This document shows positions 21,950-60,242 of a DNA stretch of 64,000 nt, piece by piece; the first letter of the stretch is position 1, and each line of letters starts with the position of its first letter. The stretch is from Cyanophora paradoxa CCMP329. Lineage: Eukaryota; Plantae; Glaucophyta. The notes under the pieces were generated by a model. That model was given only the letters and a program-made list of their open reading frames with translations, searched no databases and was not told the origin of the DNA. The stretch is taken from NCBI GenBank assembly GCA_004431415.1, contig QPMI01000127.1, forward strand, positions 1 through 64,000. The letters run 5' to 3'. The position numbers and the translations under genes are program-made.

Positions 21950-22096
21950 CGTCCCGCCGCCCGCACCACCGCCCTACTACTACCCCCCGCCCCCGGCGCC
22001 CTACGGCTACTACTACGGCGCCCCCCCGCCGGCCCCCGCCCCTCCTGGCGGCCTCTCCGCCGCCGCCCCCGGCCTGCTCAACTCCGCCACCGACGG
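21950..22096 (+). pseudogene. DUF3592-like membrane protein, Pro/Tyr-rich N-terminal fragment
   Basis: PPPYYYPPPPAPYGYYYGAPPP...GLLNSATDG; parallels the N-terminus at 59340-59672. Confidence 0.6.
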
Positions 22097-22401
22097 GGTG
22101 GATCCGGGCGCTCGCCAGAAGATGATTGAGTGGGTGCTAAACCCCCCCCGCTCCAGTTCCGATCTGCCCCCGAGCCTCCTGATCATCAACGGGATGTTCT
22201 GGCGGCCGGAGCACATGACCCCGCGCCTGTACGGGGCCCTGCGGTACCTCGAAGCGCTCCAGGCAGAGAAAGAGAGAATGCACCGCCGCTGGTGATGGTA
22301 TGTCACATCGCCGTGATTGTACAATATAGGGGGAGGACCTGTACATCCGCTCGTACGTGTCCACAACGACGGGGACGAGGATGTCGAGGAGGCGGCGCTG
22401 T

Positions 22402-22868
22402 CCCGCCCTGCACCCGGATGGCGGATCGGCCGCCGCCGGACGCGTTCAGAGACCTGGCAGATCCCCAGGTCGTGTAGCCACCACCGCCGTAGACGGCGCT
22501 CCTTGAGCCCGTTCCGTTCCGACCGGCGCTCCCCACGATGAAAACGAGGGTTTCGTCCGGGGTGACGGACAGCGTGCCGGAGACGAAACCCCCGCCCCCG
22601 CCGGTCGAAGGGTTGTAGCCGGAGGCCGATGTCCCCGCGCCCCCCGCCCCCCACAGCTTGACGGTCACGCTGGTCACGCCGGCGGGGACGGTCCACGTCT
22701 GGTCCGCCCCGGTGTGGTTGAAGATGAGCTTCGTGACGGCCGCGGCGGCGCTCGCCCCACGGAAGTAGGACATGAGCATGGTGGTGCGGCTCGAGGGGAC
22801 GCTTGGGGCGTTCGCTGAGACGCCCACGAAGGAGCCCCCCTTGAAGAGCTGCGAGAGGTAGACGGGCC
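22402..22868 (-). CDS. glycine-rich-domain protein fragment (paralogue 2)
   Basis: Near-identical 5' part to 12730-13020 (GPVYLSQLFKGGSFVG...), diverging after KLWGAGG. Confidence 0.75.
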
Positions 22869-22875
22869 ATCACAC

Positions 22876-23439
22876 ATGCCGGCGGCGACGGCGGCCCCGC
22901 TCGCCGCGCCCCTCTCGCGCGAGGAGCTCGCGGAGGCCCTTGTCCTCCCGGCCTGCCTCGAGGTGCCCCCCGCCGGCGGCACCGACGCATCGCCCCGTCT
23001 CCTCCTCTTCCGCACTTCTGTCGTGGCGGCCAACGCCCCCCTCGAGCCCCTCATGATCGGCTCCGAGCAGGCCTCGATCCCTGTCGTCGATCCCGCCGGC
23101 CGCGTGCGCGCCTTCTGCGCGGCCAACGGCGGCGCCAGCCGGGTCGCCTTCTACGCCGACGCCCTCGAGTCGATTGAGGAGGGTGCACCGGCGGCGCTGC
23201 CCACCTACCGCATGGTCCTCGGCCACAGCCGCTTCCCCGGCGCGGCGGTGAGCCTCGCGACGGGGCGGCCCCTCCCTCACCTATTCCGCCCCGCCGAGGC
23301 CCTCGCCCTGGACCAGGGGAGCGCCCGAGCCGTCGCGGAGGCGGTCGCGGCGGCCACCGGCAAAGGCGGGGTCCCCCGGGCCGGACTCTTTGTGGTGCCA
23401 GCAAGGCACGCCGGCGCAGTCGTTAAGATGGTCGGTTGA
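22876..23439 (+). CDS. hypothetical protein
   Basis: 187 aa ORF followed by a T-tract; may be chimeric. Confidence 0.45.
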   Translation: MPAATAAPLAAPLSREELAEALVLPACLEVPPAGGTDASPRLLLFRTSVVAANAPLEPLMIGSEQASIPVVDPAGRVRAFCAANGGASRVAFYADALESIEEGAPAALPTYRMVLGHSRFPGAAVSLATGRPLPHLFRPAEALALDQGSARAVAEAVAAATGKGGVPRAGLFVVPARHAGAVVKMVG

Positions 23440-24308
23440 ATTTTTTCGTGCGCCGAGGTCATGCAGAACAGTGATGGCCTTACCTCCCCGGCCATCCACG
23501 TCCTCGCCCACCGCCGCGACCTTCGTCGCCCTGGAGCGCTGGTACAACCGCCTCTCCCCTGCGCTAGGGGGCACCGTCTCCAACGACAGCCCCGGCACTA
23601 GCCAGGTGGGCCTACCCCGAGGGCGGCGTGGACGCCGGCTGGCCCCTGGCCGGGCTGGCCGGCCCCGCACTGGCGTACCGCCTCGAGGTGCGCTTCGGCG
23701 TGGCCAGCCCGCTGACGGAGCTGGCGGTCGATGGCGTGCTCCTGGGCCTGCAACGGGACTCGTCCCTCGACCAGTCGGGGGCGGTTCGCGGCCTGCAGGT
23801 GGTCTCCATGGGCCGGGGCGCCTTCCTCCCGCTGACCGGTCCGGGCGCGTGGGAGGAGGTCGCCGGGGAGGGGGAGCTGCTGCTACCCCGCCTCCGGTGG
23901 CGGGGTGGCGCCGCCGAGACGGCTTCGGCCCTTGTCGGCGACGGGGCCACGCCGGCCGGCACACCGATCATGCACCTCTACTACAGCGCCGACCCGCCCG
24001 CAGATGTACTCCACCACCTTCTGGGCGCAGAAGCGCGCCGAGGGGCCCGGGAAGCCGACGCTGCCGGCGAACCCGGCGAGGCGGAGGAGCGATGGTGGCG
24101 GCGAAGACCCGGGCGGCGTCGTTGCCGACGGTGCGCGCGCGCTCTCCGCTTGCTGCTGCATGGTGCGACTCACTGAAGCGCGACCGACCCGATCGATCGC
24201 CAGAGATCGCGGTTTTCGAAGTCTTTCTTGCCCCCCCCCCTACCTTTCTCTGTACCCCCCCCTCCCGTCCAGACGGTCGGACCCCGGATCCGCCCACGAC
24301 GCGCGCAC

Positions 24309-24825
24309 ATGCCTGGCGCCCAGCCCACGTTCCAGGTCGGCGAGTACGACGTGCGCATCATCGAGGATGGCATCGACCGTTACGTCGAGGCCGGCAAGCG
24401 CGCCGGCGGCGGCGGGCCGACCATCATGACCGCCAGCGAGTACTGCCCCGGCAAGGTCCTCTTCGCAAGGCTCTCCGACGACGGGAGCTTCTTCAACTGC
24501 GCCACGTACGACGCCGAGGTCCGGGTCGGCTACGTCGTGTCGTTCGCGGCGGGGGGCGTGTTTTCCTCCGACGCGGTCAAGGTCCCCGAGCCGTGGCCGG
24601 AGATGAACATCCGCTACGATTTCGTGGCCGTGACGTCCCCGTCGGGCCAGTCGGTCGCGTACACCTTCTACGGCGCCGGCGGCGGCGGGGCGGGCCCCCG
24701 CGAGGACGGGATCTGGGTGGTGCGGAAGCGGCCGGACGGCTCCTGGCGCCGGGACCAGCTCAAGCAGCAGTGCGGCTACCGGTTCTCGATGCCGGACGAC
24801 AGCACCATCGCGTTCGACATTCTTT
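24309..24825 (+). CDS. beta-rich hypothetical protein (3' truncated)
   Basis: MPGAQPTFQVGEYDVRIIEDG...; consistent GC3-rich codons. Confidence 0.5.
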
Positions 24826-27155: not shown

Positions 27156-27257
27156 TCTCGTGCCACTCGGCGGTGCTCGAGGCGAGGACCGGCTCCTCCT
27201 CCCCCCGGAGCCAGAGCTCCCAGTTGAGGTCCAGGTGGACGTCGGAGCGGGCAGGTG

Positions 27258-27289
<32 letters not shown>

Positions 27290-27310
27290 CAGCAGCAAGG
27301 GTCGGGCGTA

Positions 27311-27425
27311 CGCGCTTCTCGGTCAGCTGGCACGCGGCGGCGAGGCCGGCGAAGGCCGGGAAGTCCGAACCGATCGCCGAGATGATCAGGTCCAGCAGGG
27401 CATCCTCGAGCTGGCGAACAGTCAA
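27311..27425 (-). pseudogene. F-box-like exon fragment
   Basis: VRQLEDALLDLIISAI...LAAACQLTEKR followed by GTACGC donor-like sequence. Confidence 0.45.
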
Positions 27426-28215: not shown

Positions 28216-28250
28216 ACATTTTTCGGCATGTGGGGTTGTGTAAACACCCC

Positions 28251-31904: not shown

Positions 31905-31937
31905 GCAGCAACAGCAGCAGCTCTGGCAGTTCTGGCT

Positions 31938-33837: not shown

Positions 33838-34315
33838 TCAGTTCTGTATCACCACCAACCCACTCCCGCCGACCGGGGCATCGAAGCTGCCCCCGATCCC
33901 CACGCCCGCCTGGTAGTCCGAGTCCAACGAATTCCCCGGGGCCCGGCCGCCGGCGGCGGACGTGGAGCCACTGAAGACTCCGGGGCCGCCGTAATAGCTA
34001 GAGCCGCCCCCTCCAGGCCGGGAGCTGTCCCCAGCGGAACCTCCTCCGTAGTAGCCCGCGCCGCCGCAGCCACCTTTGAAGCCCACTATGTTGCCCCCCG
34101 TGTACTTGGAGCCTGCATACGCCCCAGAAAAGGAATTGCTCCCAGCCCCGCCCTCCGTCTGGGTACCGCCCTTGCCGCCATCGGCACGGCTCGAGTCGCC
34201 ACCCTGAAGGCCGCCGCCAAACCCGCCCGCTGCCACTTCCCCCCCGCCCCCGCCCCCGCCCGCTGTCATCAGATCATCTTCACCCCCTTGCAGGCGAATC
34301 GCGGACCGGCCTCCA
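33838..34315 (-). CDS. glycine-rich-domain protein C-terminal fragment
   Basis: GGGRSAIRLQGGEDDLMTAGGGG...GYYGGG...GGSGLVVIQN*. Confidence 0.75.
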
Positions 34316-36088: not shown

Positions 36089-36541
36089 GGGGGTCATCTT
36101 CTCGCCGACCGAGTCGCCGGCGAACCCCACCTGGGCCAAGCACTGCCCGGGCCTCTTCATCCACTCCGAGTACGACCCCGAGGTCATCCGCGGGATCGTC
36201 AAGAACCAGCAGCGGATCGCCAAGAGCGGCCGCAAGCCCCCCGGCGTCTTCATCGTGCTCGACGACTGCATGTACAACAAGAACGCGATCTCGAACGACA
36301 AGTACCTGCGCTACGTATTCCAGAACGGCCGCCACAACGGGATCCACCTCGTGATCGCGGCCCAGTACCTCATGGACCTCGGCCCCGCCCTCCGCGGCAA
36401 CATCGACGTCATATTCGCCTGCTCCGAGAACAACGACACCACGCGCAAGAAGATCTGGACCAACTTCTTCGGCTATATGGACTACCTCGCCTTCAAGCAG
36501 GTCTTCTCGCAGGTGACGCAGGACTTCGGCGTCCTCGTCGC
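36089..36541 (+). pseudogene. A32-like packaging ATPase, fragment 2 (Walker B, arginine finger)
   Basis: GVIFSPTE...LFIHSEY...FIVLDDCMY...FQNGRH...QYLMDLGPALRGNIDVIF...RKKIWTNFFG...TQDFGVLV; lacks Walker A and the C-terminus. Confidence 0.95.
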
Positions 36542-36639
36542 TGCTGCCAGGCTGGGAGCTCTATCGGGCGAGTGGGGGCCCGGCCCGGTCGGGTGGGCTC
36601 TAATAATTTATTCCCCCCCCCTAAGAAGAAGGGTGGTAT

Positions 36640-37050
36640 AGGGTACTCGCGCGGCACCGACCCGGGCGGCGGCGGGTAGGGGCACCAGTTGTACATCTTC
36701 ATGACATAGATGCTGAATGCCGGGTCGAGCTGGATCAACTGCTTGGCATGCGCCTGGGCCTCCTCGACCGTCGCGAAGGCGCCGCGAATCTTGAAGGCGA
36801 AGGTGCTTCCCTTCTGCGTCCCAGGGATGTGCGCATCCTCGGGGGTGACAACCGATACGAGGGCGTACTGCAGGCCGGGGACCTCGATCGGGTCCGGCAC
36901 GGGCCGCACGCGGACGCCGGGCCCGGTGGGCTTTGGCTCCGGGAAGTTGGCCTCCGGCCTCACGTCCACCCCCGTCGCCTCACGGAGCATCTCCATGGCG
37001 GCGCCGGGGGGCAGGAAATCCTGGGAAGTGCCGTCGTCGCCGCCGCTCAT
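36640..37050 (-). pseudogene. DUF5832 conserved NCLDV protein, N-terminal fragment
   Basis: VPGLQYALVSVVTPE...FKIRGAFATVEEAQAHAKQL...DPAFSIYVMKMYNW. Confidence 0.8.
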
Positions 37051-43344: not shown

Positions 43345-44200
43345 CGGCGGAGAATCCTACGCTCGATGTGCGTTGGCCGGCCTGCGCGCGCACGCGAGGC
43401 GGGCGGCGGCGAACTGACTTAGCGTTCGCCAGTCGATGCCGTCCGATATCGTGAACCTCATCGCCCACCACCGTCCGCCGCGCCGCCCCCGGCCTGCGCC
43501 GCCCCGCCTCTCACGCCGGGGCCGCCAGCTGTTCTGCCTCCTTAAGCGCGGCCCCGCGTCGGCCCCCTCGGCGCTCTTCTCTGCCGTCGAGGAGCTCGAG
43601 GTGATCACCTTCAAGGAGCACGCGCTCGACACGGTCGAGAAGGAGCGGCGGGCCCTGCTGGCCGACGGCTACGAGGCCCCCGTGGGGCTCCTCCACTTCC
43701 TCGGCGGCCGGATGGACCACGTCGCGCCCCGCGTCAAGAAGCTCGCCGTCCACTTCGGCCCGCCCGTCGCGCTCAGCTCGGGCCGCTGGAAGTTCCGCCC
43801 GGGCTGCAGGTGGCGGTGGTACGCCCCGACGGGGAAGGTCCGCCGCCGGCCCGCGCCCCCGCTCGCTCGCTCGCTCGCTCGCCCACCGCCCGCCCGCAGG
43901 AGGCCGGCCGCCACGCCCGCGTCCTCGGGATCATCGACCTGCTGGCCGTCGGCTGCCCCGGGCTCGAGGCGATCCGCACGCGGCGCTGGCTCGACCCCGC
44001 CGAGGACGGCCGCCGGACCGAGTTCCTGACGTCGGCCTACTCCGGCTCGTCCGTTGGCGTCGTCGAGGCCGAGGACTACACCGGCCGCGCCTGCTCGCCC
44101 AGCGCATCCTGGCCCCTCCTCCTGAGCCACCCCGGCAAGTCGGCCTTCTGGGAGTCGAACGCGCTCCCCGTGCGCCGGCCGCCCCGCCGCCCCGCAGACG
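43345..44200 (+). CDS. intron-containing F-box/LRR-like gene fragments
   Basis: TLD|SMPSDIVNLIAHH across a GTGCGT...CTGAC...CAG intron (43368-43432); further GTCCGC...CAG introns; VEELEV, VKKLAV, CPGLEAI motifs. Confidence 0.55.
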
Positions 44201-44229
44201 CCGACCTGGCGGCAGGAGATGGCGGAGGA

Positions 44230-45665
44230 GGGGGTCGAGGAGGCCCACGACGGGCTGCCCCCCTGGGGAGGTCCGGGATGCCTGTGGAGACTGTAGTGCC
44301 ACCGGCGTCGCCCCTGCCCTGTGCCCTGGGACGAACTGCCCCCCCGGGGAGGCCCGGGATGCATGCGGAGACTGTAGTGCGACGGGCGCCGCCCCGCCCC
44401 TTTGCCCCTCGACGGGCTGCCCCCCCGGGGAGGTCCGGGATGCCTGTGGAGACTGCAGTGCCACGGGCGAGGCCCCGCCCGTGTGCCCCGCGACGGGGTG
44501 CGCCCCGGGGCACGACCGCGGCGGCGCCGTCTCGGGCGCCTTCTTCTGCTCCGCCCGGGGCCGGGCGTTCTGGCTGAGGCACGGCGGCGGCTCCTCTTTC
44601 TCCTTTACGGCGGCCCCGGCCTTGGACCCGACCTCCGCCACCATCGAGCAGGTCCTGCAGGCCGACCCTGCCCTCGGGGGCGCCCCCCCTGGAACCCGGT
44701 CCGAAACGCCTGCCGCACCCCCGAGAACCCCGGCGGCGAGTGCGTGCCGGCCCGCTCCGACCCCAACATCTGCCTCAACGGGTGCACCGCCGACAAGCCC
44801 AACCGGGCCGACCCCCGCTGCCCGACCCGGTGCTCCCGGTTCCCCGGCGGCAAGTGCGACTCGGGCTGCCCGCCCGAGGCCCCCTACCTTACGGCCTGCG
44901 GCTGCGAGCCGGGCCCCGCGGCCGCGCCAGGCATGTGCATGGACGGGTGCGCCCCCGGCTTCCGCCGCAACCACCCGGGGTGCACGGGCGTGCCAGGCGC
45001 CCTCGTGGGCGAGTGTGTGCCCGACAATCAGTACGTCTCCTACCGGACCTGCCTGAACGGGTGCACCTCCGATGCCCCCTTCCGCAACGAGTGCGGACAG
45101 TGCGATCGTACCCCGGACCGCCGTAAGGACGACTGTGGCGTCTGCGGGGGCAACAACCGCAATAAGAACATCTGCGGCAACTGCTTCCGGGACGGCCTCG
45201 AGTGCACCTCCCCCGGTTGCACCCTCGGACAGAAGCGCAACTTCTTCTGCGAGCACTGCGTCCCGCACGGGGACGCAGAGACATTCATGTTCCCCGTCTG
45301 CCCCGGCACGGGGTGCCCACCGGGCCAGACCAAGGACCGGTGCGGTGTGTGCGGGGGCGCCGACGAGTGCGTCGGATGCAATGGGGTCCCGAACTCGGGC
45401 TGGAAGCTGAACGCGTGCGCCGAGTGCGTGCCCCCGTCGGCCTCATCTATCGTGTGCAAAAACGGGTGCGAGGCCGGCCAGTCGAAGGACGACTGTGGAA
45501 ACTGCAGCGAGAAACCCCTGCCCAAGGACACATGCGGGGTGTGCGGGGGCGACAACAGCTCGTGTACGGACAGGGTGTGCCTCGCAAAGAAGAAGTATGG
45601 AATGGACAGCGGGTACTGCAACGTCTACAAGACCACCCAGCTGGGGCAGGGCAAGGATCCAATCA
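44230..45665 (+). CDS. Cys-rich repeat protein fragments
   Basis: NGC, TGCPPG and KD.CGVCGG repeats; interrupted at about 44520-44680 by an unrelated piece. Confidence 0.75.
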
Positions 45666-45879
45666 TCTTCGTCAGGCGCCATCGAGTTCCTGGTTCGGCC
45701 GGCCGCCGCGCCCCCTCCCCGTGCCGACCGCCGACCGCAGCTCGACGACGCGATCGACTCCATGCGCGATCTGCAGCACGGCCTGGTGGACATCCTGCAG
45801 ATGCGCCCGCCGAAGGACGTGACGGTGCGCAGTTCGCCCCCCCGCCGCCCGCCCGCCTTCACGTCCGGGCGCCAGGTGG

Positions 45880-46510
45880 AGGTCAGCCCCGCCCTGGCGC
45901 GGCGTGCGATCGGCGAGATCGTCGTCCGCGCCTACAAGCTCCACCCCGTACTTTTTGACGCTGGCCGGTCCACCCTCCAGCCACACATGCAGTACGCAGG
46001 CGACGTGAGCCGCGAGCCCGTCGCCCCGCTGGTCATCTCGACCCTCACCCGGAAAGGCCTCAAGATGCTGCCCGAGACCGGCTGTGTGCCCCCCCCCGCC
46101 CCCGCCCCCGCCCCCGCCCCCGCCAGCCGGTCTGACGGGCCAGGCCAGTCGCCTTCGGCAGCTTCTATGCCTTCGAGGGCACGGTGTTCGCGATGCCGCA
46201 CTTCCAGTGCGCGTTCCAGTGGTGGGAGGTTCGTGTGAGCGCGCTCAACCGCGGCGGCGGGCCGTACTCACCATGCGCGCCCCGGGCTGCAGGGTCTCGT
46301 GCTCGATCTGGACGATCGCGCCATGAACGGCAGGTTCATCGGGTACCGGTTCTTGTTCCACCAGCGGCCGGTACGTCCCCGTGCCCCCCCCCCCCCCCCC
46401 CCCGCCGGGCTGATTGGCGACAGGCCGCAAGCTACAAAGACAACGGCAGCAAGTTCGACTTCATCGCCGAGGGCGAGAGCGAGAGCGAGGACGAGGAGGA
46501 GGCTACCTGC
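45880..46510 (+). CDS. intron-containing gene fragment, paralogue of 57240-58582
   Basis: Introns 46084-46148, 46229-46292, 46371-46423 restore PLVISTLTRKGLKMLPETGFAFGSFYAFEGTVFAMPHFQCAFQWWEGLVLDLDDRAMNGRFIGYRFLFHQRP. Confidence 0.8.
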
Positions 46511-46619
46511 CCCGCCTCCCTTCCCCCGCCCCCCCCGGCCCCGGCGTCCTCCTCCCGGAGCGGCCTCCGCGAGCGGTCAGCCGCCCCGCCCGCCCCGCCG
46601 CCCCGCCCCCGCCCGACTC

Positions 46620-47190
46620 CGTCACCCCCGGAAACCCCGAGCGTTCCTCCCACAGAGGTGCTGGCCAGTGTCGTGGCTCCTGTCACGCCCAGTGTGCCCC
46701 CGAGCGTGGTGGCCCCCGTCACGTTCAGGGCACCCCCTACGTGCGCCGCCCCGGCCACGCCCAGCCCGCCCGACGTGCGCACCGAGCCCGTCGTCGAGCT
46801 TGTTGCAGCGCCTGTACTGGTGCACACAAGGTCGCCGCCGACGTAGGTGTTCCCCGCGACCCCCAGGCCGCCTGCCGTTCGGAGGGAACCTGTTGTGGTG
46901 GATGTGGAGGCCGTCGAGTTGTTGACAATGACACCCCCTCCGGTATAGATGTGGCCTCCTACTCCCAGCCCCCCCGTCACACGGAGCGCGCCTGTCGACG
47001 AGTTGACGGACGCTGTGCCACTCGTGCACACGATCTCTTTACCGACGTAGAGTGCCCCCATGACCGCGGCGCCGCCTGCGGCGCGCACCGAGCCTGTCGT
47101 TGTGCTCGTTGCCTCCGTTGTGCTAGTACACACGATGTCGCCGCCGACATAGGCGTTCTTTGCAACGCCCAGGCCGCCCGCAGTGCGGAG
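46620..47190 (-). CDS. fibre/spike-like repeat protein fragment
   Basis: Repeats of STTTGSLRTAGGLGVAGNTYVGG and GTLGVTGATTL. Confidence 0.8.
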
Positions 47191-47556
47191 GGCCTGCCCG
47201 CCCCCCCAACCCTCGACGGTGCGCCGCCCACGGCCACTGCCGAGGTGGGCGCGGGGCCGCTCTTCAGGGCCACGTACAGCGCTGCCGGGCGGGTGGTGCA
47301 GTGGACAACAGCAGCCGCCACGTCGGCAGCAACGGTCAACCTGGTGGCGTGCGTGTTCGCCTAGATATTTTTCGATCATCAAACAAAAACGTTAACATGG
47401 AATCAATCATCCTGTCGCACCTCGAGAACGAGCGCTGGGTGAGCAGCAACTCGCGGAACCCCGCGTGGAGGTGCCCTGATCGTTGGCGCTGGGGTCATTG
47501 CTGTTTTCGTCACCACCATTCTGCTGGCAGTTTACCTCCTCCGGCGAGAACCACAG

Positions 47557-48783
47557 GTGGTGAACAACAGCAACCCGGCCGGCGGCATAATCTCGACATT
47601 ATGCCCGCCCGGCCGCCCCCCGGACGCATGTGGCCGCTGCGGGGGCGACCACTCCGAGTGTACATCGCCGGGCTGCCCCCCTGGGATGCTGCGAGATGCT
47701 TGCGGGCTATGCGGTGGTAGGGGCCTGTCCTGCACCGATCCAGGCTGCCTGCCGGGGGTCCGCAAAGACGACTGCGGCATTTGCGGGGGCGATGGCTCAT
47801 CCTGCCGCGACCCCGGATGCCTGATGGCGCACACGTACCGCAACGGGTGCGGGGAATGCACTCTGGAAGGGGCGACGCCGGGGGTCTGCCCCGCGACAGG
47901 GTGCCCCCCGGGACAGGACAAGAACAACAGGTGCTGGCAGTGCTGGTGGCAGGGCCAGGGGGATCCACCAGTGTGCGAGGACGGCTGTGAGCCGGGCTCC
48001 TACTGGTTCGAGACATGCCAGCAGTGCGTACGGTGGGGCGACCCCCTGCCCCCCCTGTGCGCATCGACCACGTGCCCTAGCGCCACCCAGCGGATCAATC
48101 GCTGCGGAATCTGCACGGAGGGGGGTGTAACGCCCTACGTCATCTGCCCCAACACAGGCTGCCGGCCGGGGGAGGATAAGCGGAATTCGTGCGGAGATTG
48201 TTTTCCCTCGGGGCAGCAGCCTGAGCGCTGCCTGAACGGCTGCCTGCCCTCGCAGCGCTGGGACCCTCGCTGCGAGGAGTGTGTCGATCGGGACGCGCCC
48301 CCCTCGGCCGCCTGCGTCCGCACGGGGTGCCCGCCCCCGGCCACAAACCGTCGCAACGTATGCGGAGACTGCGTCCCAGGTGGCTCCACCCCGATGGCCT
48401 GCCCCAGCACCGGGTGCCCGATCGGGGAGGACAGGAACAATGCATGCAGCGAGTGCTGGGAGCGTGGCAAAGAGAAGCCCGTGTGTGACAACGGGTGCCC
48501 CCCCTCGCGCCGGTTCCCCATCGCTGGCTGCCTCGACGGGACCACCTGCACAGATATCCCGGGGTACTGCGAGAACGGGTGCACCCCGGGGGAGGTCCGC
48601 CTTATCGGCTGCCTCGACCGCACGCGGTGCAGCATGACAGGCAGCTGCCGAAACGGCTGCGGCCCGGGGGAAGTCCCCATCCAGTGGTGCGTGGATGGGA
48701 CCGTCTGCACTTCGACAGGCCGGTGCCGCAACGGGTGCCTCCCTGGGCAGATTCGGGACCCCAATTTGGGCGTGTGTGTGTGA
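47557..48783 (+). CDS. Cys-rich repeat protein (5' end missing)
   Basis: D.CG.CGG, CP.TGCPPG.DKNN.C and NGC.PG repeats over about 400 aa. Confidence 0.8.
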   Translation: MVNNSNPAGGIISTLCPPGRPPDACGRCGGDHSECTSPGCPPGMLRDACGLCGGRGLSCTDPGCLPGVRKDDCGICGGDGSSCRDPGCLMAHTYRNGCGECTLEGATPGVCPATGCPPGQDKNNRCWQCWWQGQGDPPVCEDGCEPGSYWFETCQQCVRWGDPLPPLCASTTCPSATQRINRCGICTEGGVTPYVICPNTGCRPGEDKRNSCGDCFPSGQQPERCLNGCLPSQRWDPRCEECVDRDAPPSAACVRTGCPPPATNRRNVCGDCVPGGSTPMACPSTGCPIGEDRNNACSECWERGKEKPVCDNGCPPSRRFPIAGCLDGTTCTDIPGYCENGCTPGEVRLIGCLDRTRCSMTGSCRNGCGPGEVPIQWCVDGTVCTSTGRCRNGCLPGQIRDPNLGVCV

Positions 48784-50148
48784 GAAGAGGCCTAGGCATG
48801 CTGAAATTTTTCCGGGGTTTAACTGGAAAGACCCCAAAATTACCGCACAACAGATCTTTGGCTTTAACGCCCCAGGCTGTCCTCGCTGCCCCTACTCATC
48901 CCCCACATACAACTTCATTGAGAGCAATTGCAACTGTATCTGTATTCCCAACGCCCGGGAACCATCAGAAGTTACATCAGGAAATCCTTAGTGTGCTAAT
49001 GGAAGACTTGTGTGGCCATTGGAGCTTCAGCTAAGGCCAGGCCGCCCCTGCATGTAGTCCGCGTGGAGGAAACCAACCATACATCCAGCCCCGCCCGCCC
49101 CCCACCCCCCGCCTAGGCCTAGTGTCTGGGCAGTCTGGTGGCTTGTGTCTCGATCGCCAGCCCTCTCGGCTCAAGTACATACCGTACATCGGCTCAAGCC
49201 ATTCGGAAGCTTCATCGGGTCGGTAGAGATGAGGTTCAATTTCGACAGCACGTGCACGTGCACTACCCCGACCCTGAGCACACGGGCTTCTCCTGTCCCT
49301 TGGCCCAGCACTCGCGGCACCGGTTGTTCTTGTCCTGCCCTGGGGGGCACCCCGTCGAGATGCAGATCAGCCGCAGCGGCGCGTCGGCCCGGACGCACTC
49401 CATGCACCCCGGGTCCATCTTTGGTGCCGCCGAAGAGGATGTCGGCGACTTGGACGCCGGAACCATGGCTGAACCTCAACACGCTTGCCTACATCAACCG
49501 AGTTCTGGCCCGGCGCGGGGAGCTCCCGGTAGTCGCGGCCATGCAGCCCCCCCCCGTGCACGCTCCCTGGTCGCCCGTTTCCTCCTCTCCGCCGCCGCCT
49601 CCGTCGTGCGGGGCTGGCGGGCCGCCCGCCACGCCGTCCTCCGCATCCTAGCGGCCGTCCGCCGCCGCCGCCTCCGCCGCCGGCTCCCGGCGACGGGGGG
49701 CGTCATCCTCAGGTCGCCGGCCTGCTCGTTCAATACCGCAAGGAGGGCGGAGATCATCTGCTGCGGGTCGCAGCCCCCTCCAACGGGCACATTCCGCACG
49801 GAGCCGCCGGGTCCGTGGTAGGTCACGACGGGCTGGATCCGCCAGGGGTTGCCCGGCGCGGCCGGCCGGGCGCAGAGGCGCAGGACAGCGGCGCCCGGCC
49901 CCCCACGGCGCACAATGCCCTCCGCACAGGAGAACGGCAGGCACTGAGCCGCCCCGGCGAGGAGGGGGCCGCCGGCCCACGAAAGGGCGTGCAGGGCCCG
50001 CCGCGCGAAGAACGTCCACACGAGGGGCTCGTGGCGCCCGAAGAGCCACGACGAGGGTGGGCGAGGGTGCCGCTTTCCGCCGCCGCCGAGGATCACGCCC
50101 GCCAGCCCGGCCACGCCCCCGGTCCCGCCTGCCTTTGCGGCGGCCTCC

Positions 50149-50245
50149 TCGCGGCAGTAGTAGAGTCGGAACTGGGACTTGGATATCCACTGGTGGTTGG
50201 AGTCGCGGCAGTAGTAGAGTCGGAACAAGGACTTGGATATCCACT
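50149..50245. repeat. 54-bp tandem duplication (about 1.8 copies)
   Basis: tcgcggcagtagtagagtcggaac..ggacttggatatccact at 50149 and 50203; minus strand encodes WISKSxFRLYYCR. Confidence 0.85.
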
Positions 50246-50439
50246 CGCGGGCCGTGGTCTTGTTTATGTCGCTACGAGTACTAGACTAGCTATAGGTTCT
50301 CGTGCGCTGTATGGTACGCCGTCGGCCTGGTCGCCGCCATCATGATGCGGTCGGCCCACGTGTCGAGGAGGGGCCGGTCGTTGAAGACGTCGGGGCTCGC
50401 CCAGAGCGCCGGGGGCGGCATGCGGCGATCCGGGAGCCG

Positions 50440-51013
50440 CAGCCAGGCCTACGAGGAGGCGATGCTCGCCACCGTCCCGGGGGCGCGGCGCGGGACCATG
50501 AACTACACGACGGCCCGCGCCCTCCCGGGGGAGTTCGCCGTCCTGAGCGTCCGCCAGGTCTCGCTGCCGGGCGGGCGCGTCGTGAGCCTCGTCGCGGTGT
50601 TCCGCGCCGAGGGCGGGGCAGGGGCCGCCGGCGCGGGGGGGGACCTCCTGCGCCCCGTGTCCTCCCCGCAGAACGTCTTCGGGTCGCAGGCCTTCGCCCC
50701 CTGCCGCATGTGGCTGGGGCCGGCGGGGCCGCGGTGCATGCCGAGCGCCGTCCAGGCCCTCCGGTCGCGGGAGATCCTCCCCTACGCGGTGGTGCACGCG
50801 GACCGGGTGCTCGAGTTCGGGGCGAGGCTCTTCGGGATCCTCGAGGAGGGCGAGGAGAACGGGGTCGCGTGCGGGCTCGAGATGGTCGGGGGCGGGCTCG
50901 GGGCCGAGGTCGAGGAGTCCCTCCGCCCGTTCCGCGCCGCGGGGGCGCGCCTGCCGGCCTGGCACCCCGTGTACCAGCGGCAGCGGCCGGGCGGCGGTGG
51001 CGGCCGCGGGTAG
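50440..51013 (+). CDS. hypothetical protein fragment
   Basis: Natural reading frame with strong GC3 bias. Confidence 0.45.
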
Positions 51014-51085
51014 CCACGCGCCGGCCCCGCCCCCCACCCCCCAGTGTTCATTTTTTTTTCATCCGAATCTCCTAAACTGCGGCGA

Positions 51086-51586
51086 ATGGCCGATGACCCG
51101 AAGCGACCAGGGGGGGGAAGGAGGGCAACCAGGTCCATGACCGCCGGGGCCGCGGCGGCACGGGAGCGCTGGGAGCGTGCGGTCAGGTTCTATAAGGCGA
51201 GCAAGGCGCGGGAGCAGGCGCGTTTTCTTGAGCACTGGAAAGGCCGGGCCCGCAACCTCTCGGAGCTTCGAACGGCGTTTCAACCGAATGCCCCCGTCAA
51301 GGTGGACGATGGCACCCTCAGGTTCGAGGGCGGGGCCGCCGAGTTCACCCTCGGACGGGGCACCACGGTGCGGATGAAGGGGCGGTCGGGCCCGCTGTTC
51401 AAGTATGCACCCGCGCCGGCTGACTTGAGAAAGGAGCACAAAGTGTCGACGGTCTTGAGCACCCATGCGCCCCCTGGTGGCATTCGCAGCACTGTGGTCG
51501 ACTGCTTCATGGAGGCACAGGGGCCGCGCAGGAGGTGCGTGTTCGAGAAGGGGCGGTGCATCTCCGCGCAGGATGCGCTCGCCGAC
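51086..51586 (+). pseudogene. putative kinase N-lobe fragment
   Basis: TLGRG..., LFK, KEHKV, CVFEKG resemble the Gly loop, Lys, helix-C Glu and hinge; joins 8065 in frame. Confidence 0.45.
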
Positions 51587-53684
51587 ACGGGCACGGACGC
51601 GTCGGCGGCGCTCGCCGCCTTGGGGATGACCGTGGATGAGTGCTTTGGCGACCCCCATGAGTCCTGCTGCGACAAGTTGAGGAGCCTCGGGCTGTGGCAG
51701 GAGCGCCGGATGACGGGCGTCACGGACCCCTCGGCCCAGCGGTTCGTGACCCCCACGGACTCATTCTTCGGGCCCCCGCCCCCGGGGGCCGAGCCGAACT
51801 TCAACCACATGTGGCGGGCCTGGCACTGGGCAATCAAGCGGCTCGAGATCGACCAGAACAGGCGGGGCAGGGCGGGGGGGGCCAGCGAGGAGGATGCGGT
51901 CGTGGCTTTGTTGCGGGGGGTTATACGCTCTGGATAGGTACCTCCGGGCCCCTTCCCATTCCATCAGGCTTTGAGAGCCACGAAAGATCATGATGCTAGA
52001 GGGGTGCTCCTGGACCGCTTTCATCACGTGCTGCAGAATCCAGTCCAGCGCCGCCGCCGCAGTCGGCGGCGGCGGCGTGGGACCCGCATTCGCACCGCCT
52101 AAGGGCCGGAAGCCGGCCTGAACAGTCGGGGTCTGGCGACCCGCGACCGGGGTCGCCGCCGCGGCCACCGCCGACGCCGGCGGGACCGAGGCTGGGCGGG
52201 AGCCGGGAGTCCGGCGGCCGCCGCCGGCCAAAAGCCCCGGCCCGATCCGGGGCCGGGCGCCGGCACCGGCATGGCGACAGGGACAGCGCCGAAGCCGGCG
52301 GTGGCGGTGCCGGCCATGTCGACGAGGTCCGCGGCAATGCCCACGAGCTCGACGGTCACGCGGTCGAGGGACATGCGGGACGGGCCGCGGAGGAGGGCGA
52401 CGACCAGGGGGTTGCACAGCAGCGCCGCCACGCACGTCTGCGCCGTCGAGTTCGACCCCGCCTCGTCGCTCCTCGTCGTCTCGGGCGTCGAGGCGGTGGA
52501 CGCCCGGTCCTGCCTCGTGGCGCGCTACGACGGCATCGGCGCCCAGTCGCGGGGCCGCGGGCCTGCCCTCCTGCCGCGGCCCGCCGCCCTGCGGAGGGAG
52601 GAGCGCTGGCAGAACGATGCACAGGGCGGCGGCGGCGCCGGCGTCGCCGAGGAGACAATCGCCGCTGGCCTCTCGGAGCTGATCGACCGGATCGCGCGAA
52701 AGAGGCAGCTGGGCAGGGCGCGGGTCGCGCACGACCTGGTCCGCGCCGTCCTCTGCCTCGACCGGGGCTCTGCCCCGGGTCCGGAGCCCCAAGGAGGTGC
52801 TGCGGTCCGCGGCCGCCGAGGCGGCCTCGGCGGCGGACCGGCGGCGCCGCAGCGTGCGCTGGTTCGGCGCGCCGCCGCCGAGGCCCCTTCAGCGGGTCCT
52901 GGCCCACCACGGGATCGCCACGACGCTCATCCCCTAGTCGCCCCACCACGACGCCGCCTGCTGCTGCTTGAAGTCAAAGAACCCACGATGACCCGGCTTT
53001 GTGTGTCCCGGAATTCTCCCCTCCCGGCCGGGGAGGGGCTTCCCGGCTTTCACGGCAGCCGAGCACTGGCACTGCAAGACCGTCTACTGCGGCGGAGGCG
53101 GCGGTACGTTCGGCTCGGCCCGGAGCGGCAGCAACCCGTTCGACGACCCGTTCTTCCGGCAGGACCAGGGGGGCCGGTAGCTAGCTAGCTGAAGAAGGCG
53201 TACCGCCCGAGCTCGGCCGGCTCTGGCGCTGGGTCTTGGGCCCCTCCTCGTGCGGGCCGGCGGGGCGCGAGGCCCTCCGCCGCGGCATCACCGCCTCGAT
53301 CAAGGCCCGCTGCGTCTGCTCCGACGGCGACCCGATCGGGCTCGAGCCCTGGCGGGGGGGGGGCGGCGGAGGGCGGGGCCGAGGCGCACCGTCAGGAGCG
53401 GGCACTGCTCCTGGATCTCCTCCGGCAGTTGCCGTCGCCGTGGCCTGCGATGCCTGCGAGCTGCGTGCGTGCCGCGCCGCGCCGGGCTCCCCGTACTACG
53501 TCTACCCCATCCCGGGCGAGTCCTGGCACTCCTGGGACACCCGCGCTGCCAACTACGTCATGTGCCGCCCGGGGCTGGTCATCGCCGCCGGGGGGGCGGC
53601 GGTCGCCCTCCTCGTGGCGTCCCTCCTCCTCCTCGCCCACTTTTTGTCTGCGCCACAGAGGCGTAAGTGAGCCCCGCCTCCGCC

Positions 53685-53909
53685 ATGTCCTCCGACAACA
53701 CCTTCCCCGTCATCCGAGGGTCCGCTCTGATCGAGGCGCTCGTCCTCGGGATTGCCGTATTCGGAGTCGCCTACATGCTGAAGAAGATGTCGCTCTGGGA
53801 CACCGTGAAGCGCCTCATCGCAGTCGGCATCGGGATCGAGCAGTCCCTCCCGGGTCCGGGTGCGGCAGGCGGGTCCGGCGCCGCCCCCCGCGGGTGGAAC
53901 CTCGCCTGA
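53685..53909 (+). CDS. small membrane protein
   Basis: MSSDNTF...LIEALVLGIAVFGVAYML; stop followed by T-tract. Confidence 0.5.
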   Translation: MSSDNTFPVIRGSALIEALVLGIAVFGVAYMLKKMSLWDTVKRLIAVGIGIEQSLPGPGAAGGSGAAPRGWNLA

Positions 53910-53960
53910 CATTTTTTTTCCTCCCCTGTAGCTACACACAGCCCGACGCGCCAGCTGCAG

Positions 53961-54705
53961 ATGCCGTCCACTTCCACGAAGAAGTCGAAGCGCGCGGCCG
54001 CGTGCCGCGTCAAGCCGACCAGCCACCCGTGCCGTCGCGAGAAGCCTGCGTGCGGCGGCGCGGCCGGCGACCCGAACTTCACGCGCGAGAAGATCCGGGA
54101 GTTGAGGTGGCCGCAGAAGGAGAAGGTCATCGGGCAGCTCTACAAGGACATCCAGCAGTACGGCGGGCGGGTCAATGACGCGCAATGCCTGCCCCCCATC
54201 CACGGGTTCCGCCCCACCGTCGTCCAGTCGATGAACCTGCTCGCCCGGGCGCAGACGTTCCTGAGCAACATCATGGCGTTCGCGGCCAAGGCGAACCGGG
54301 GCGTGTACGAGGCCGCGGTCGACGAAACGCACATCAACGCCTCGCTTGCGTTCCTCCTCCGCACCAAGGAGTGCCTGCCGGAACCGTTCAACAAGCCGGC
54401 GTGCAGGCTCCAGGCCGAGTCCGCCGCGGCCCTGCTCGAGGGCGCGACGAAGAACTTCACCCCCCCGCCTGTCCGGGCGCCATTCATTGGCGAGAAGGAG
54501 GTCCTCAAGTTCCTCCCGAAGCTCGAAGTCGCCACAGCTCAGCAGGCGACCGCGCTCGGGAAGCAGGCCGTGGAGGCCTTGGGCGAGCTCTTCAACTTTG
54601 ACCCCGTCTTCCAGGTGCTGGTGGACTCCCAGGGGCGCGGGGACTCGGCCGCCCGCAAGCTCGAGGACATCTTCAACGACATCGTCTTCTACGGGGCGTG
54701 CCGGC
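53961..54705 (+). CDS. hypothetical helical protein with basic N-terminus
   Basis: Long GC3-biased frame. Confidence 0.55.
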
Positions 54706-54708
54706 GGC

Positions 54709-55300
54709 ATGCCGACCAAGAAGAAGAAAGCCGGCGGCCCCGCTGACGACTCGTGCCGGGGCGACGTCGATCCCTCCCTCGCCGACCTCCTTGAGCGCAA
54801 CGAGGTGCTCCGGAAGGCCTCGGAGGACGCCCGTGCAGCCGCGGGGACCAGCTGTGGCCTCGCGAAAAGCAAGGTGCGGGTCAAGCACGCCAACGCGAGC
54901 TTCGAGGCGCCCGTCGTGCTCGACGCCATCAAGAATGCGGCGATCATGGTGTCCGGGGCGGTGAGCATCTGCATGGCCAGCGCCAAGCGCACGGGGGGGG
55001 AGGCACCTGTCGCGAGCGACGTCTCGGACCTGCTCGCGGACCTCGCCAGAGAGGGGCTGAAGCTCTCGGGGGGGCCCGAGGCGAAGAGCAAGCTCCTCCC
55101 CAAGGCGCCCTTCCACGGGGGGTTCAAGAGCGACGAGGCATTCCGGGCCTTCCGCCAGGGCGTCACGCACGCCGGGAACGTCTCCCTGGGCGCGGACACG
55201 GAGACGCGGAACCTCGCGCTGAGAGTCGTCGACGCGGTGTTACGGGACGCGCAACAGAAAAGCCGGCACAACAAGAGGCAGCGGGAGGAGCCCGTGTCGC
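54709..55300 (+). CDS. hypothetical protein with basic N-terminus (MPTKKKK)
   Basis: Long GC3-biased frame starting immediately after the previous one. Confidence 0.5.
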
Positions 55301-55519
55301 CGCCCCCCCCTGCCCTCCCTGCCCCGAACTGGCGGCCCCTGCCCCGTGGTCAGGATCCGCTGGTATATAGGCCGAGAAGGGCGGGCATTGAGGGGATGTC
55401 AGGCCCCCGTCTCACGTACGAAGAGACGAAAGGCCTGTGGTACGACGGGACGGACTGGGTTCCGCGCTGATCGCCATGATACCTTATTCATTTCACACAT
55501 TACACGCCTAGCTGCTGCT

Positions 55520-55835
55520 GCTGCTGCACACCGCCCACGCTCCTCTTGGCGAGGTACACGGGGATGCGGGACTTGGCGTCGGCCATGAAGTGCACCGTGA
55601 ACGTGTGAGGCGGTGGGTCGCTCCCCGTGAAGTTCAAGAAGCGGTCCTCGAAGATGCAGATCCCAGCGCGGTGCCGCGGGAGGACGCGCTTGCAGAAGGC
55701 CCCCTGCTCGTAGGCCGGCCCAGCCCAGCTGCAGTCGGGGGTCCCCGGCGACCCGGCGCACGCCCACTTTCCGGCCGCACCCTCTCGCCAGGCGGCGGGG
55801 TCGTAGCACGACATCCAGAAGCGGACGATCTGCCT
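55520..55835 (-). pseudogene. GT34-like glycosyltransferase C-terminal fragment
   Basis: FWMSCY...W...CSWAGPAYEQGAF...LN...VHFM (EQ.A and HF motifs). Confidence 0.5.
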
Positions 55836-55954
55836 CCCCGTGGACCCCGAGTCCATTCGCCGGGACCTCCGTGACCTCCAGCAGCGCGCCATCCAGCGGT
55901 GCCTGGAGGCCAGCGTCCTCGTGGTCCGCGCGGGGCCCCTGGAGGACATGGGGG

Positions 55955-56130
55955 CCGCCGTCGACGACGCCCCGAGCCCGGACCGTCGGCTCTTCATCAC
56001 GCACGCGCACACGGACCACGTGCGGGCCGCGGGGCCGCGGGCCAGGGCGGCGCTCGCCGCCGCCTGCCCCCACTGCACGGAGGCCACCGCCCGCCTCCTC
56101 GGGCTGAGGGCGTACGTCCGGCTCGAGGCC
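55955..56130 (+). pseudogene. metallo-beta-lactamase-fold nuclease (SNM1/Artemis-like) fragment
   Basis: LFITHAHTDHV...HCTEATARLL. Confidence 0.7.
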
Positions 56131-57239
56131 GGCGGCGACACGCCCTCGGTCTTCCGGGGGAGCGCGGGGGTGCCCTTCCTCGCCGCCCAGTTTTGCTCCT
56201 TCCTCTGCGGCGGCCCCGTGTCGGCGGAGCCCGGGGGCCTGGCCACCGGGGCCCGGGCCTTCCAGGACCTCTGCAGCCTCGTCAAGATCCGCATCCCCCA
56301 CGCACGGCACCGGCAGTACGGCCCGCTGGTCGACATGGGCGGCCTCGTCACCCTCGCGCGACTCTCCGGCACGGCGCGGGCCCTGGCGATGCAGGGGGAG
56401 CTGGCTCTCCAGGACCAGGCCGGTGGGGCCGCCGAACTCCAGGGCCTCGGCCTCCTGCAGGGCCACCCGCGTGGGCACGGGCGCGGAGGTGCCGGTGCTG
56501 ACACCGTCGTCCCCGTCCGCCTTCCACTGCATCGCGCCGGCGACCCCGAGCGCGAGGCGCTCCCCCCCGAGGCCGGCGCGGATGATGACCGCCCCGTGCC
56601 CGCCGGCCTCGATGCGCGAGACGACCTCCTCGATCGACGCCAGGGTCGTGGGCGTGGGGGGAAGTCGAGCTTCATCTTACACAACGGCAACTTTCTGGAG
56701 TTCGTTTCGCACGCCTCCTCGCCATCACGGCGATCGCCGAGGAGATGCAGCGGGCCGGCGCGGACCCGGACGCGTTCGCGGCGGCACTGGGGTACAGGTA
56801 CACCGGCGGCACGCTCGGCCTCGCGCTGGGCCTCCTGGGCGGCGCGGGCCGCTGCAGAAGGCTACACGCGGCGAAACCGGTTCAAGTTCACAGCGAGCTC
56901 CAACAGTTCCGACCTGGCCCCCCCGGGCTCCCCCGGGCCCCCCCGGGCTCCCCCGGCCCCCCCGGGCTCCCCCTACCCCCCCCCGGGCTCCCCCCGGCCC
57001 CCCACGCTCCCCCTGCCCCGCGGCTCTCCCCCGGCCCCGCGCGCCCCGCCGCCGCCGTGCTGTGCGGGGACCGGGTATGCTGTTTTGCCGCGAGGGGGGC
57101 TGGACTTTGCAGTGTGGCCTCGTGCGGGGAGCAGATGCAAAAAAGCGGAGGAGCTTGGGGTGGGAATGGGCCCGGATAGAGAGTCCAGGGGGGGGGGCCT
57201 CCGGCCAGGTCTCCCCCCCTGCAGCAGCCGGCCGGCTTC

Positions 57240-58582
57240 CCCTGGGGCTCAAGTCGGTTCTGAAGGTGACCGATGCTGAACTGAGAGTGCTGAAGGAGCG
57301 TGCACTCGCCGCCGAAGGTCGGTCTCCGCGCCCCCGCGCCCGCCAACTTGAGCCGCCGACACGCGCGCCGCGCCGAAACGCAGGCCAGGGCGCTGGGGCC
57401 AAGTTGTTCCAGGCGTTCAGCGCGTTCGAGAAGCTGAGCGCCTGCACGCCGGGGCGCCCGTACTACATCATCTGCGAGAAGCCGGAGGAGCCCCGCGACG
57501 GCTTGATTCTGCGGGTCCGGGTCATCCGGTTCAAGGAGGAGGAGCCCGACGATGATATCGTGGGCGACATCGCCAGTGAACCCATCGGTGCGCGTGCGCG
57601 CATGGCGAGGCCGCGCCCTGTGTCGACCCCGTGCCGCGCGCCGCCGCAGATGACACGCCCCCGGGCTTCGAGGAGGCCGTGAAGGAGGGGCGGTGGGCAA
57701 GTAGCGACAAAGAGCAAGTGCAGTTCAGGTTCACCGATATGAAGCACGTCCTCAACGAGGATGAGATCGACAGGGACTGCTACTTCTGTGGCGAGGGGAC
57801 CCGCAAGCACTGGTGCGCGTGCACCGCCGCCGCGCGGGCGCCGCGGCCTGAGACGGGGGCGGCGTGCACGCAGCATCACGTGCCATCTCCCGGCGTGCGA
57901 CGGTTGCAGCGGGCTCACGCTGAGGCTCAGCCTGGACCAGGACGGGGATTCTAGCCGCAGCAGCACGCCCGCCGAACTCTCAGCCTGCACGCTGGCTGCG
58001 TTCCGCCCGATGGGCTTCTTCGCGTGCGGCCGCGAGGGCGCTCCCGCCGCGCTCCGGCTCGGCAAGCTGGACCGCGAGGCCGGCGGGCTGGTGCGCTTGC
58101 CTTTCGATACGGGTCTACCGCCGGGCGCTCACCCCGGGGTCCGCCGGGCGTGCGCGCGCGCCAGGACTGCATCTTCTGCCGCCGCTTCCACTCCAACCTG
58201 GACGACGACCGCCGGCCCTTCCTCCCGCTCGTCATCTCGGGCTTCACCCGCGAGGGCATCGAGTCGCTGCCCACGCTTGGACGTGAGCCCGCCCCGCCCC
58301 CCTCCCCGCCCCCCGCCCCCCCGCCGGCCCGACACCCCGCTGCAGTCGCATTCGGCGCCTTCTGTGCCTACGAGGAACAGTGTTCACGGTTCCTCACTAC
58401 CAGTGCGCGTTCCAGTGGTGGGAGGTGCGCCCCCCCCCCTCCCTCCTCCTCCCGCGCCGGGGCGCTCGTTCGCTGGGCTAAGGCTGCGGCACGCGCCGAC
58501 GCAGGTACATAAGGTCTGTCCGGACCAGGAGGCTATGAACAACAGGTTCATCGGGTACATGTTCTCGTTCTGCCAGCGGCCG
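57240..58582 (+). CDS. intron-dense ADD/PHD-like zinc-finger gene fragment
   Basis: Introns 57318-57383, 57588-57649, 57813-57873, 58091-58164, 58283-58345, 58425-58504 and a donor at 58583; spliced CYFCGEGTRKHCITCHLPACDGC...DCIFC; one 1-nt deletion near 58374. Confidence 0.75.
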
Positions 58583-58633
58583 GTGCGCCCCGCCCCCGGC
58601 GCCGCGGTGGACGGCGGCGCCCGGGACTGGCAG

Positions 58634-59029
58634 GAGCGCATATCTGTGATGGAGAACATCGAGCGCAACGCCGGCATCATCCTGCGCAGGGCGCGGCAGA
58701 CGCTCCAGACGCTCACCGTCCGCGTCGACCGCATGGGGGCCGTGCTGCGAATGCCCGGGCTTTTGCCGCCCTTCGAGCTCGAGGTCTCCCGCTGGCTCAT
58801 GCTCGCCGGCGGTCACTTCCCCCTGCTCCGGGTGAGAGGCCGGCCCGGGGCGCGCGCGGCGGCGACTGACGCCCGCGCCCGGGCAGGAGATCGTGCTGGA
58901 CGGGGGGCGCATCAGCCGCCCTGCGGACACCCGGTTCCAGGTCTTCGGCCTCCGGGTCCACGCGCCGTCCCTGCGCGCCTTCCGGCTCCTCAACGCCTCC
59001 ATCGTGGCGGTGTCGGTCGAGGAAGCCAG
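58634..59029 (+). CDS. intron-containing LRR-like gene fragment
   Basis: LQTLTV, FPLLR|EIVL (intron 58832-58886 with ACTGAC branch point), APSLRAFRL; donor GTGAGA at 59030. Confidence 0.6.
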
Positions 59030-59339
59030 GTGAGAGCGCGCGCGCACCGGGGCAGCAGCACGAGACGTACTACTCGGTCTGGGCTGCTCCGAACCGGAGC
59101 TCATACTACTTGCTTGACCGCCGGCGACGCCGGCGGGCCGGTTGGATCAAAACGCTCTCCGGTGCTTCAGCGCACGCTGGCCAGCTTCCTGGGCGCGAGC
59201 GATCGCTGGATTTCGCCAGGTGGCCAGGCGATGAAGGTGCGCGCGCGTGTACCCCCCCCCCTTCCACCCCCCCCCAGCCCGGCGGACCGATCAATCGCCG
59301 CCGCCATGATGACGTCGCCGACAGCAGCAGCAGCAGCAG

Positions 59340-59672
59340 CAGGGCCGAGGCCGTCGTCCGGTGGACCTGCGCGTAGGCCCAGGCGATGGCGAGGCCGACG
59401 CCAAGGAGGACGAGGGTCCCGCCGATGAGGACCCCGCCGATGAGCCAGAGGACCGAGTAGAACTTGCCGACGGCCGCGAGGCCGCCTACGGCCGCGCCGG
59501 CGAGGCCGCCTCCGCCGCCCGGCGCCGGCGCGGGGGGGTAGTAGTACGGTACCGGTGCTGGTGGAGGAAGGTATGCGTACGGCGGCGGCGGCGGCGGGTA
59601 GTAGTACGCAGCTGGGGGGGCCGCCGGCGGCGCGGGGGGCGGGGGCGGGGCTGCAGTGGTGGCAGTGGCCAT
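59340..59672 (-). pseudogene. DUF3592-like membrane protein paralogue, N-terminal fragment
   Basis: Pro/Tyr-rich head then GGLAAVGKFYSVLWLIGGVLIGG TM; breaks at a (CTG)n tract. Confidence 0.6.
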
Positions 59673-59731
59673 TAAATATTCAACATTCAATCGATTCCGT
59701 GAAAATAATAGGATGCTCGCTGGCGGCCGCC

Positions 59732-60242
59732 CTACTTACGCAGCATCCTCAGGGCGTTCGCGCCCCCCACGAAGACGGCGCCGGCCTTGCTCGAGCGGGC
59801 GATGTACCACTGCGAGACGGACGCCACGAGGATGATGACGCCGACGACGAAGAGGATCCCGACGACGAAGGCGAAATGGGGCCACGGCTGGTGCACGCTG
59901 CCGGCGGGGTTTGCGGGGTCGTACCGCACCTCGACGCCGTCCCCCGCTCTGTAGGCCGAGCCCGAGCGCTGGATCGAGATCCGGCGGTCGTCGACCCGCA
60001 CCCCACCGGCGGTGACGAAGGATATGTCCACGTCGCACGTGTAGGTGGGCGTGGAGGAGTCCTTGGAGCCGCCCCGCGAGCAGGCGTGCACCCGCGTGAC
60101 CGTGGCGGTCGCGGCGCTCGTGTGGGCGTTCGAGCGGGCCCGCGAGATGGCCCAGGCGGTGCCGACGAGGAGGAAGATGCCCCCGATGAGGCCGCCCACG
60201 ATCAGGTTCACCTTGGAGGTGACACGGCCGACGTCGGCGAGG
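59732..60242 (-). pseudogene. DUF3592-like membrane protein, C-terminal part
   Basis: TM, ATATVT, YRAGDGVEVRYDPANP, TM. Confidence 0.75.

Follow-up and report, generated by a model that had tools for sequence, protein, structure and literature searches.

Giant-virus insertions, described as methylated, have already been reported from the alga Cyanophora paradoxa, in a statement that concerns the species rather than the locus treated here (PMC12344493), and most giant endogenous viral elements (GEVEs) have been called degraded, silenced relics (10.64898/2026.10.09.758095). Genes that lie in pieces are described from other systems. In chromothripsis, many fragments are linked up again, their order and orientation being random, as a rule by non-homologous end-joining (PMC13390643); in Oxytricha, the pieces of scrambled genes lie out of order and on both strands, with short overlaps at some joins (PMC9797194); in Diplonema, mitochondrial genes are systematically fragmented into non-overlapping modules of similar length (PMC3035467); and in mirusviruses, the terminase gene is split over approximately 30 kb, sometimes on opposite strands, with RNA proof that it is trans-spliced (PMC12768974). 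Here we describe a window of 64,000 nucleotides (nt) from C. paradoxa CCMP329 (contig QPMI01000127.1, positions 1-64,000, assembly GCA_004431415.1), which is, judged from its genes, giant-virus (nucleocytovirus) DNA, and in which ten or more of the genes with a family match are not complete where they lie, as against one, encoding DVNP, that is clearly whole. On balance, we think it probable that the window holds a dead endogenous giant virus that was broken up, its pieces then being ligated by end-joining at random with respect to order and orientation. In the open-access literature searched, no scrambled endogenous giant virus was found.

One gene of the DUF3592 family lies in two pieces, 38 kb apart and on opposite strands, each of them adjoining an unrelated piece, and a tandem paralogue is also present:

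21948..22097, + strand: left piece, the Pro/Tyr-rich N-terminal part of the gene (end-anchored match to the homologue P0004; register from the family profile)
22098..22295, + strand: coding-like but unrelated piece, which the left piece now runs into (frame call weak)
59732..60242, - strand: right piece, with a predicted membrane helix, the DUF3592 domain, a second hydrophobic stretch and a stop (Pfam PF12158, E 3.6e-9)
60243..60469, + strand: C-terminal coding piece, unrelated and without a start codon, that stands back to back with the right one (score 14.8, the highest among six frames)
59340..59672, - strand: tandem paralogue, starting at the ATG at 59672, whole across the equivalent position and broken off near 59340

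The right piece belongs to the DUF3592 family (37.6 bits, against a Pfam cut-off of 25.3) and has no in-frame start codon. A full search of 1.84 billion representatives returned 185 homologues of it at E ≤ 0.001, and the best outside homologue, P0004 (210 amino acids, E 1.4e-14), has a Pro/Tyr-rich N-terminus. The initial annotation had proposed, from the bases at 22096 (+) and 60242 (-), that these are the two halves of one gene and that, once joined, they align gaplessly with the paralogue. The bases stand where it placed them, and the gapless alignment across the join scores 205, compared with 77 for the right piece alone; the best database homologue agrees, the reconstruction scoring 319 against P0004 over nearly its whole length and the right piece alone 210. 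When all in-frame joins on a 30 by 30 base grid were scored with a profile built from 126 of 152 family sequences, the join as first annotated ranked first, at 17.6 bits and with an overlap of 0. Neighbouring joins in the same register reach 16-17 bits with overlaps of at most 2 nt, and the exact base can be fixed only to about 22092-22101. A join with a 5-nt overlap, one codon away, was rejected by the family profile (7.6 versus 17.6 bits); the paralogue alone separates the two joins weakly (205 versus 197), and the no-overlap join was preferred because the outside family profile discriminates. Similarly, the first 50 residues of P0004, anchored at their end and laid on 860 proline-containing six-frame open reading frames (ORFs), found their best end, after the paralogue itself, at base 22097 (score 113; next best 103).

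On this sequence evidence, the split is confirmed and the pairing of 22097 (+) with 60242 (-) is supported. It might nevertheless be that the scrambling is real and that one of the two pieces belongs to a third paralogue located beyond the window; the DUF3592 family is duplicated in the window and the left piece is of low complexity, both of which favour such a mistake. We consider it very unlikely. At the join the codons of the two pieces fit exactly, and not a residue is lost or repeated; the third copy that the initial annotation had named as a possible better partner is nowhere in the 64-kb window. No further Cyanophora copy stands among the best 150 of the 185 matches (source checked for 10) or among the clusters of 92-296 amino acids, and a word search for DUF3592 was likewise empty. 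No long repeats were found at the junction beyond the paralogous Pro/Tyr codons, and the C-terminal half of the paralogue is not in the window. A single inversion of 22098-60242 was considered and rejected, as the reading direction of the two leftover arms is away from the junctions in each case. No start codon of the left piece's own was found. Just 5' of that piece, at 21925-21950 (+), the reading frame switches near 21936, and the residues ahead of the switch resemble the first residues of P0004, so that a one-base error or indel is possible; the switch may be a break or a long-read error. The EukProt gene models P0001 and P0003 are chimeras of unrelated pieces; in the latter, antisense sequence and a gene from next to it are attached to the DUF3592 piece.

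Joins could also be restored in three other genes, the pieces of which lie as follows:

10264..10368, + strand: A32 packaging ATPase, piece 1 (Walker A; profile positions 27-52 of 296)
36093..36545, + strand: A32, piece 2 (profile positions 51-212 of 296; 5-nt G overlap with piece 1)
11360..11539, + strand: VLTF2 transcription factor, piece 1 (tblastn with the L009 ORF)
12198..12329, + strand: VLTF2, piece 2 (6-nt direct repeat with piece 1)
6325..6498, - strand: VLTF2, piece 3, on the opposite strand and 5.8 kb away (tblastn E 1.7e-5; register loose)
12734..13011, - strand: Gly_rich_2 fibre-like gene, N-terminal piece (Pfam)
14560..14838, - strand: continuation of the fibre gene, upstream of its N-terminal piece, so that the order is permuted (2-nt overlap; register from the paralogue)

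The name VLTF2 for the L009 homologue is one that we assume from its motifs. The five restored joins (one each in DUF3592, A32 and the fibre gene, and two in VLTF2) overlap by 0-2, 5, 2, 6 and 2 nt; two unite opposite strands, one is permuted and two are collinear (n = 5). At the allowed slide, chance would produce an overlap of 5 nt at a rate of 0.022 and one of 6 nt at a rate of 0.011, while a 2-nt overlap is at chance level and arises in 20% of exact cuts. No shared motif or site consensus was found at the ten junction ends. The initial annotation had held that a fixed-length pointer is not required, and this stands, the best DUF3592 join having no overlap and the restored joins no common motif. 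A site-specific recombinase or fixed pointer was rejected as a candidate in view of the ten ends, and chance alone yields 4-6 nt in the registers next to these. With overlaps that range from 0 to 6 nt and lack a consensus, the joins show an end-joining-like spectrum. With regard to splice signals, the DUF3592 join pairs GT with AC, not AG, and the A32 join, the fibre join and the second VLTF2 join offer no such signals. Furthermore, the pieces are undamaged: 17 family-supported pieces contain no stop in 1,929 codons (a partly circular count, as the bounds were set inside open frames), the observed/expected ratio of CpG is 1.04, which means no CpG loss, and the pieces abut other coding pieces with no non-coding spacers between them.

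For A32, the two pieces of which are 26 kb apart and both ends of which are absent from the window, a sister copy is available. P0002, a second C. paradoxa copy on another contig and 84% identical, is continuous across the break with the same spacing; therefore, no base was lost there, and the restored A32 join is confirmed by comparison of the two sequences. The gene model of P0002 itself departs approximately 65 codons after the position of the break, which suggests, on the basis of this one gene model, that sister elements are broken at other places. No sister copy of VLTF2 was found.

The scrambled order might also be an artefact of the assembly of the long-read contig. Twenty of the 24 sequencing runs listed contain 0.98 of the words of 52000-61900; all 20 are flagged as possible sources, and they therefore exclude misassembly while remaining silent on how far the element is spread. 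The short-read contigs, which measure up to 6.6 kb, run collinearly with the window; a contig bridges 60242 in four of four runs, and in run X1 contigs bridge all seven candidate junctions in 44100-64000. The contigs are unbranched at the junctions, so that the cultures did not contain joined DNA as a major form (contigs drop rare variants). None of the 15 contig joints listed, from a total of 431, involves 60242, the partner of which lies outside the stretch compared. What could speak for an artefact is that small indels distinguish the window from the short-read contigs and that, of the two DUF3592 junctions, the read checks cover the right one; against this stand the collinearity of contigs through the junctions in four of four runs and the word content of the 20 runs, and we find an artefact hardly credible. 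Because of the small indel differences, frame switches on one and the same strand could stem from long-read errors, and the break count leaves them out. The contig at 61041-61776 has twice the depth of its neighbours in four of four runs and is likely a duplicated piece; its ORF, which has no family match, is presumably endonuclease-like.

The nucleocytovirus identity of the window follows from its marker genes, found by Pfam, tblastn and profile searches: A32, the VLTF2-like factor, PCNA, YqaJ, DVNP and DUF5832. In this respect the locus has the hallmark genes of a GEVE, and, as in the C. paradoxa elements described in PMC12344493, nucleocytovirus genes are clustered in an algal genome assembly. 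The Pfam scan covered 109 model segments and 240 of 359 selected ORFs, and no capsid or polymerase match appeared in the window ORFs scanned. The GC content is approximately 70%. No close viral relative was found among the viral contigs and metagenomes searched: A32 had a closest identity of at most 38% in viral contigs and no close relative in metagenomes, YqaJ reached at most 63%, PCNA yielded only one weak locus, and for DUF5832 and a VLTF3-like piece no close relative was found. Two window proteins match EukProt gene models of C. paradoxa, both on one contig, at 99% and 100% identity, and the virus is likely integrated in the genome of this alga. Host-type, intron-rich genes with short introns, as read by eye, are interleaved among the viral pieces. 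Two of them, with introns of approximately 60 nt, are related to one another: one at 57340-59040 (+) has about eight exons, in order, and the other, at 45675-46500 (+), abuts viral pieces at both its ends.

The ten genes counted as incomplete are A32, VLTF2, both DUF3592 genes, three Pfam-matched fibre loci, PCNA, YqaJ and DUF5832. Those not yet located, and the one whole gene, are:

19112..19300, + strand: PCNA, C-terminal part only (profile positions 187-242 of 246; Pfam PCNA_C)
13339..13785, + strand: YqaJ exonuclease without its N-terminal part (profile positions 65-211 of 278; Pfam)
36654..37050, - strand: DUF5832 gene, with the break after position 46 of the 81 in the profile
9599..9892, + strand: DVNP viral nucleoprotein, whole gene (Pfam E 2e-12)

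Four Gly_rich_2 fibre-like paralogues are present, all incomplete (12734-13011 with 14560-14838, 22400-22866 and 33844-34311, all on the - strand, and 40907-41857, +). The piece at 12734-13011 is 88% identical to the paralogue at 22621-22866, and two of the paralogues have the same N-terminal frame switch, near 13010 and 22866. Another fibre-like gene, with repeated GGLGV units, lies at 46600-47200 (-) and is broken against a piece of a host-type gene. Weak matches were obtained for the C-terminal piece of a second YqaJ-like gene at 14840-15058 (-) (E 0.034) and for the N-terminal piece of a VLTF3-like gene at 12437-12733 (-) (E 0.028), the conserved C-terminal part of which is not in the window. 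Members of a Cys-rich repeat protein family, some whole and some cut, lie at 44244-45673, 47443-48783, 62500-63000, 16760-17050 and 8457-8900. The 25 strand switches among 115 segments are inflated by antisense ambiguity and were not used as a break count.

Clean breaks with little or no homology, and without signals, spacers or decay, fit short-term double-strand breakage with end-joining. On this favoured reading, the viral DNA would have been broken by double-strand breakage into pieces of a few hundred bases, which would then have been re-ligated in random order and orientation, probably by host non-homologous or microhomology-mediated end-joining, leaving a dead provirus. Breakage and joining would have lost almost no bases, the scrambling would have been fast relative to point mutation and would have taken place at or after integration, and the element would never be unscrambled. 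As in chromothripsis, order and orientation are random with a microhomology of zero to a few nucleotides (n = 5); the differences are that the substrate here is viral, with pieces of hundreds of bases, and that a single event would be our interpretation. Several observations weigh against this reading. Partners lie nearer to each other than a global shuffle predicts (two of five within 2.1 kb and three of five within 6 kb), and the product reciprocal to the A32 join is an open frame ending in a stop, both of which suit serial inversions. The absence of decay is also compatible with a genome maintained by selection. The first VLTF2 join, with its 6-nt direct repeat, is collinear, and the 658 nt between its pieces (a spacing read from one homologue) begin with GT and end with AG, so that it may be an intron or a simple insertion. 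By eye, no break is apparent in several unassigned genes (0.7-1.3 kb) or in one intron-rich gene (approximately 1.7 kb), and the breaks are therefore uneven. Finally, integration flanks are not seen in the window, the sister breaks are read from one gene model alone, and the short-read support covers the right part of the window including 60242, with junction 22097 outside it.

A different history, gradual and conservative but likewise a dead end, would be a series of reciprocal exchanges, in which inversions and excisions of circles followed by reinsertion at homologies of 0-6 nt acted on integrated or replicating viral DNA through viral or host recombination activity. We regard this as possible, if rather unlikely. 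It would account for the nearness of partners (0.66, 2.1 and 5.8 kb); furthermore, the A32 reciprocal unites the two longest open frames, the fibre-gene reciprocal creates a stop codon exactly at the end of a YqaJ-like piece, and two YqaJ-like genes are present in the window. However, in a six-frame test the top-ranked frames of the two leftover arms match in none of the five cases, agreement requiring second- or third-ranked frames, although the test is blunt because it miscalled one known frame. The arm behind the fibre join resembles the N-terminal part of VLTF3 (weakly, E 0.028) and may reach the junction, and the window ORFs scanned gave no match to a recombinase or topoisomerase, nor is there a site consensus. 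A live provirus, with pieces reassembled on reactivation either as DNA, in the RNA-templated manner of ciliates, or as RNA, by trans-splicing as in diplonemids, is a far less probable alternative. The absence of stops and of CpG loss and the joins without base loss are in its favour, and the piece lengths resemble those of diplonemid modules (60-350 bp; PMC3035467). Against it, the joins share no pointer or signal, no non-coding spacers are present, the sister A32 does not share the break (n = 1), the contigs are unbranched at the junctions, so that the joined form is not major (rare variants being dropped by contigs), and GT-AG fits only the collinear one of the five joins.

The same observations bear on the comparison with systems in which pieces are put together again. 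Out-of-order pieces on both strands with short overlaps at some joins recall Oxytricha (PMC9797194); however, the best DUF3592 join has no pointer, there are no non-coding spacers to eliminate, the break is not shared with the sister copy, and neither an unscrambled form nor a template RNA was seen, the locus being known here from DNA contigs. The systematic fragmentation into non-overlapping pieces of similar length is shared with Diplonema (PMC3035467), but the pieces here, known from DNA, abut pieces of other genes on one molecule. As in mirusviruses, a viral gene is split over tens of kilobases and the strands may differ; there, however, one gene is concerned and its splice sites are canonical, whereas here many genes are split and the DUF3592 join pairs GT with AC. 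We would be surprised if the alga's genome harboured a latent giant virus as a scrambled archive, from which reactivation would restore it through templated DNA rearrangement or trans-splicing without pointers. If it were true that the pieces are re-joined, this would be a new kind of viral genome, and the first scrambled virus genome.

In summary, the usual view is that silencing, the loss of genes and slow mutation bring about the death of endogenous giant viruses, whereas here the genes are cut every few hundred bases. The word 'fragment' is absent from the main text of PMC12344493, as are 'rearrange' and 'inversion' from that of 10.64898/2026.10.09.758095; in contrast to the GEVEs described there, the genes at this locus decay by being cut and shuffled while the pieces themselves remain undamaged, and viral decay of this form would be new. 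That the pieces are undamaged and that a second A32 copy is seemingly broken elsewhere points to a recurrent process. There are practical consequences, in that gene callers make chimeric proteins from scrambled DNA, such as P0001 and P0003, and searches for marker genes will under-count scrambled elements. Perhaps, although we hold this to be doubtful, the shredding and re-ligation of viral DNA is a host defence by which such DNA is inactivated; C. paradoxa can be cultured, so the idea is open to experiment.

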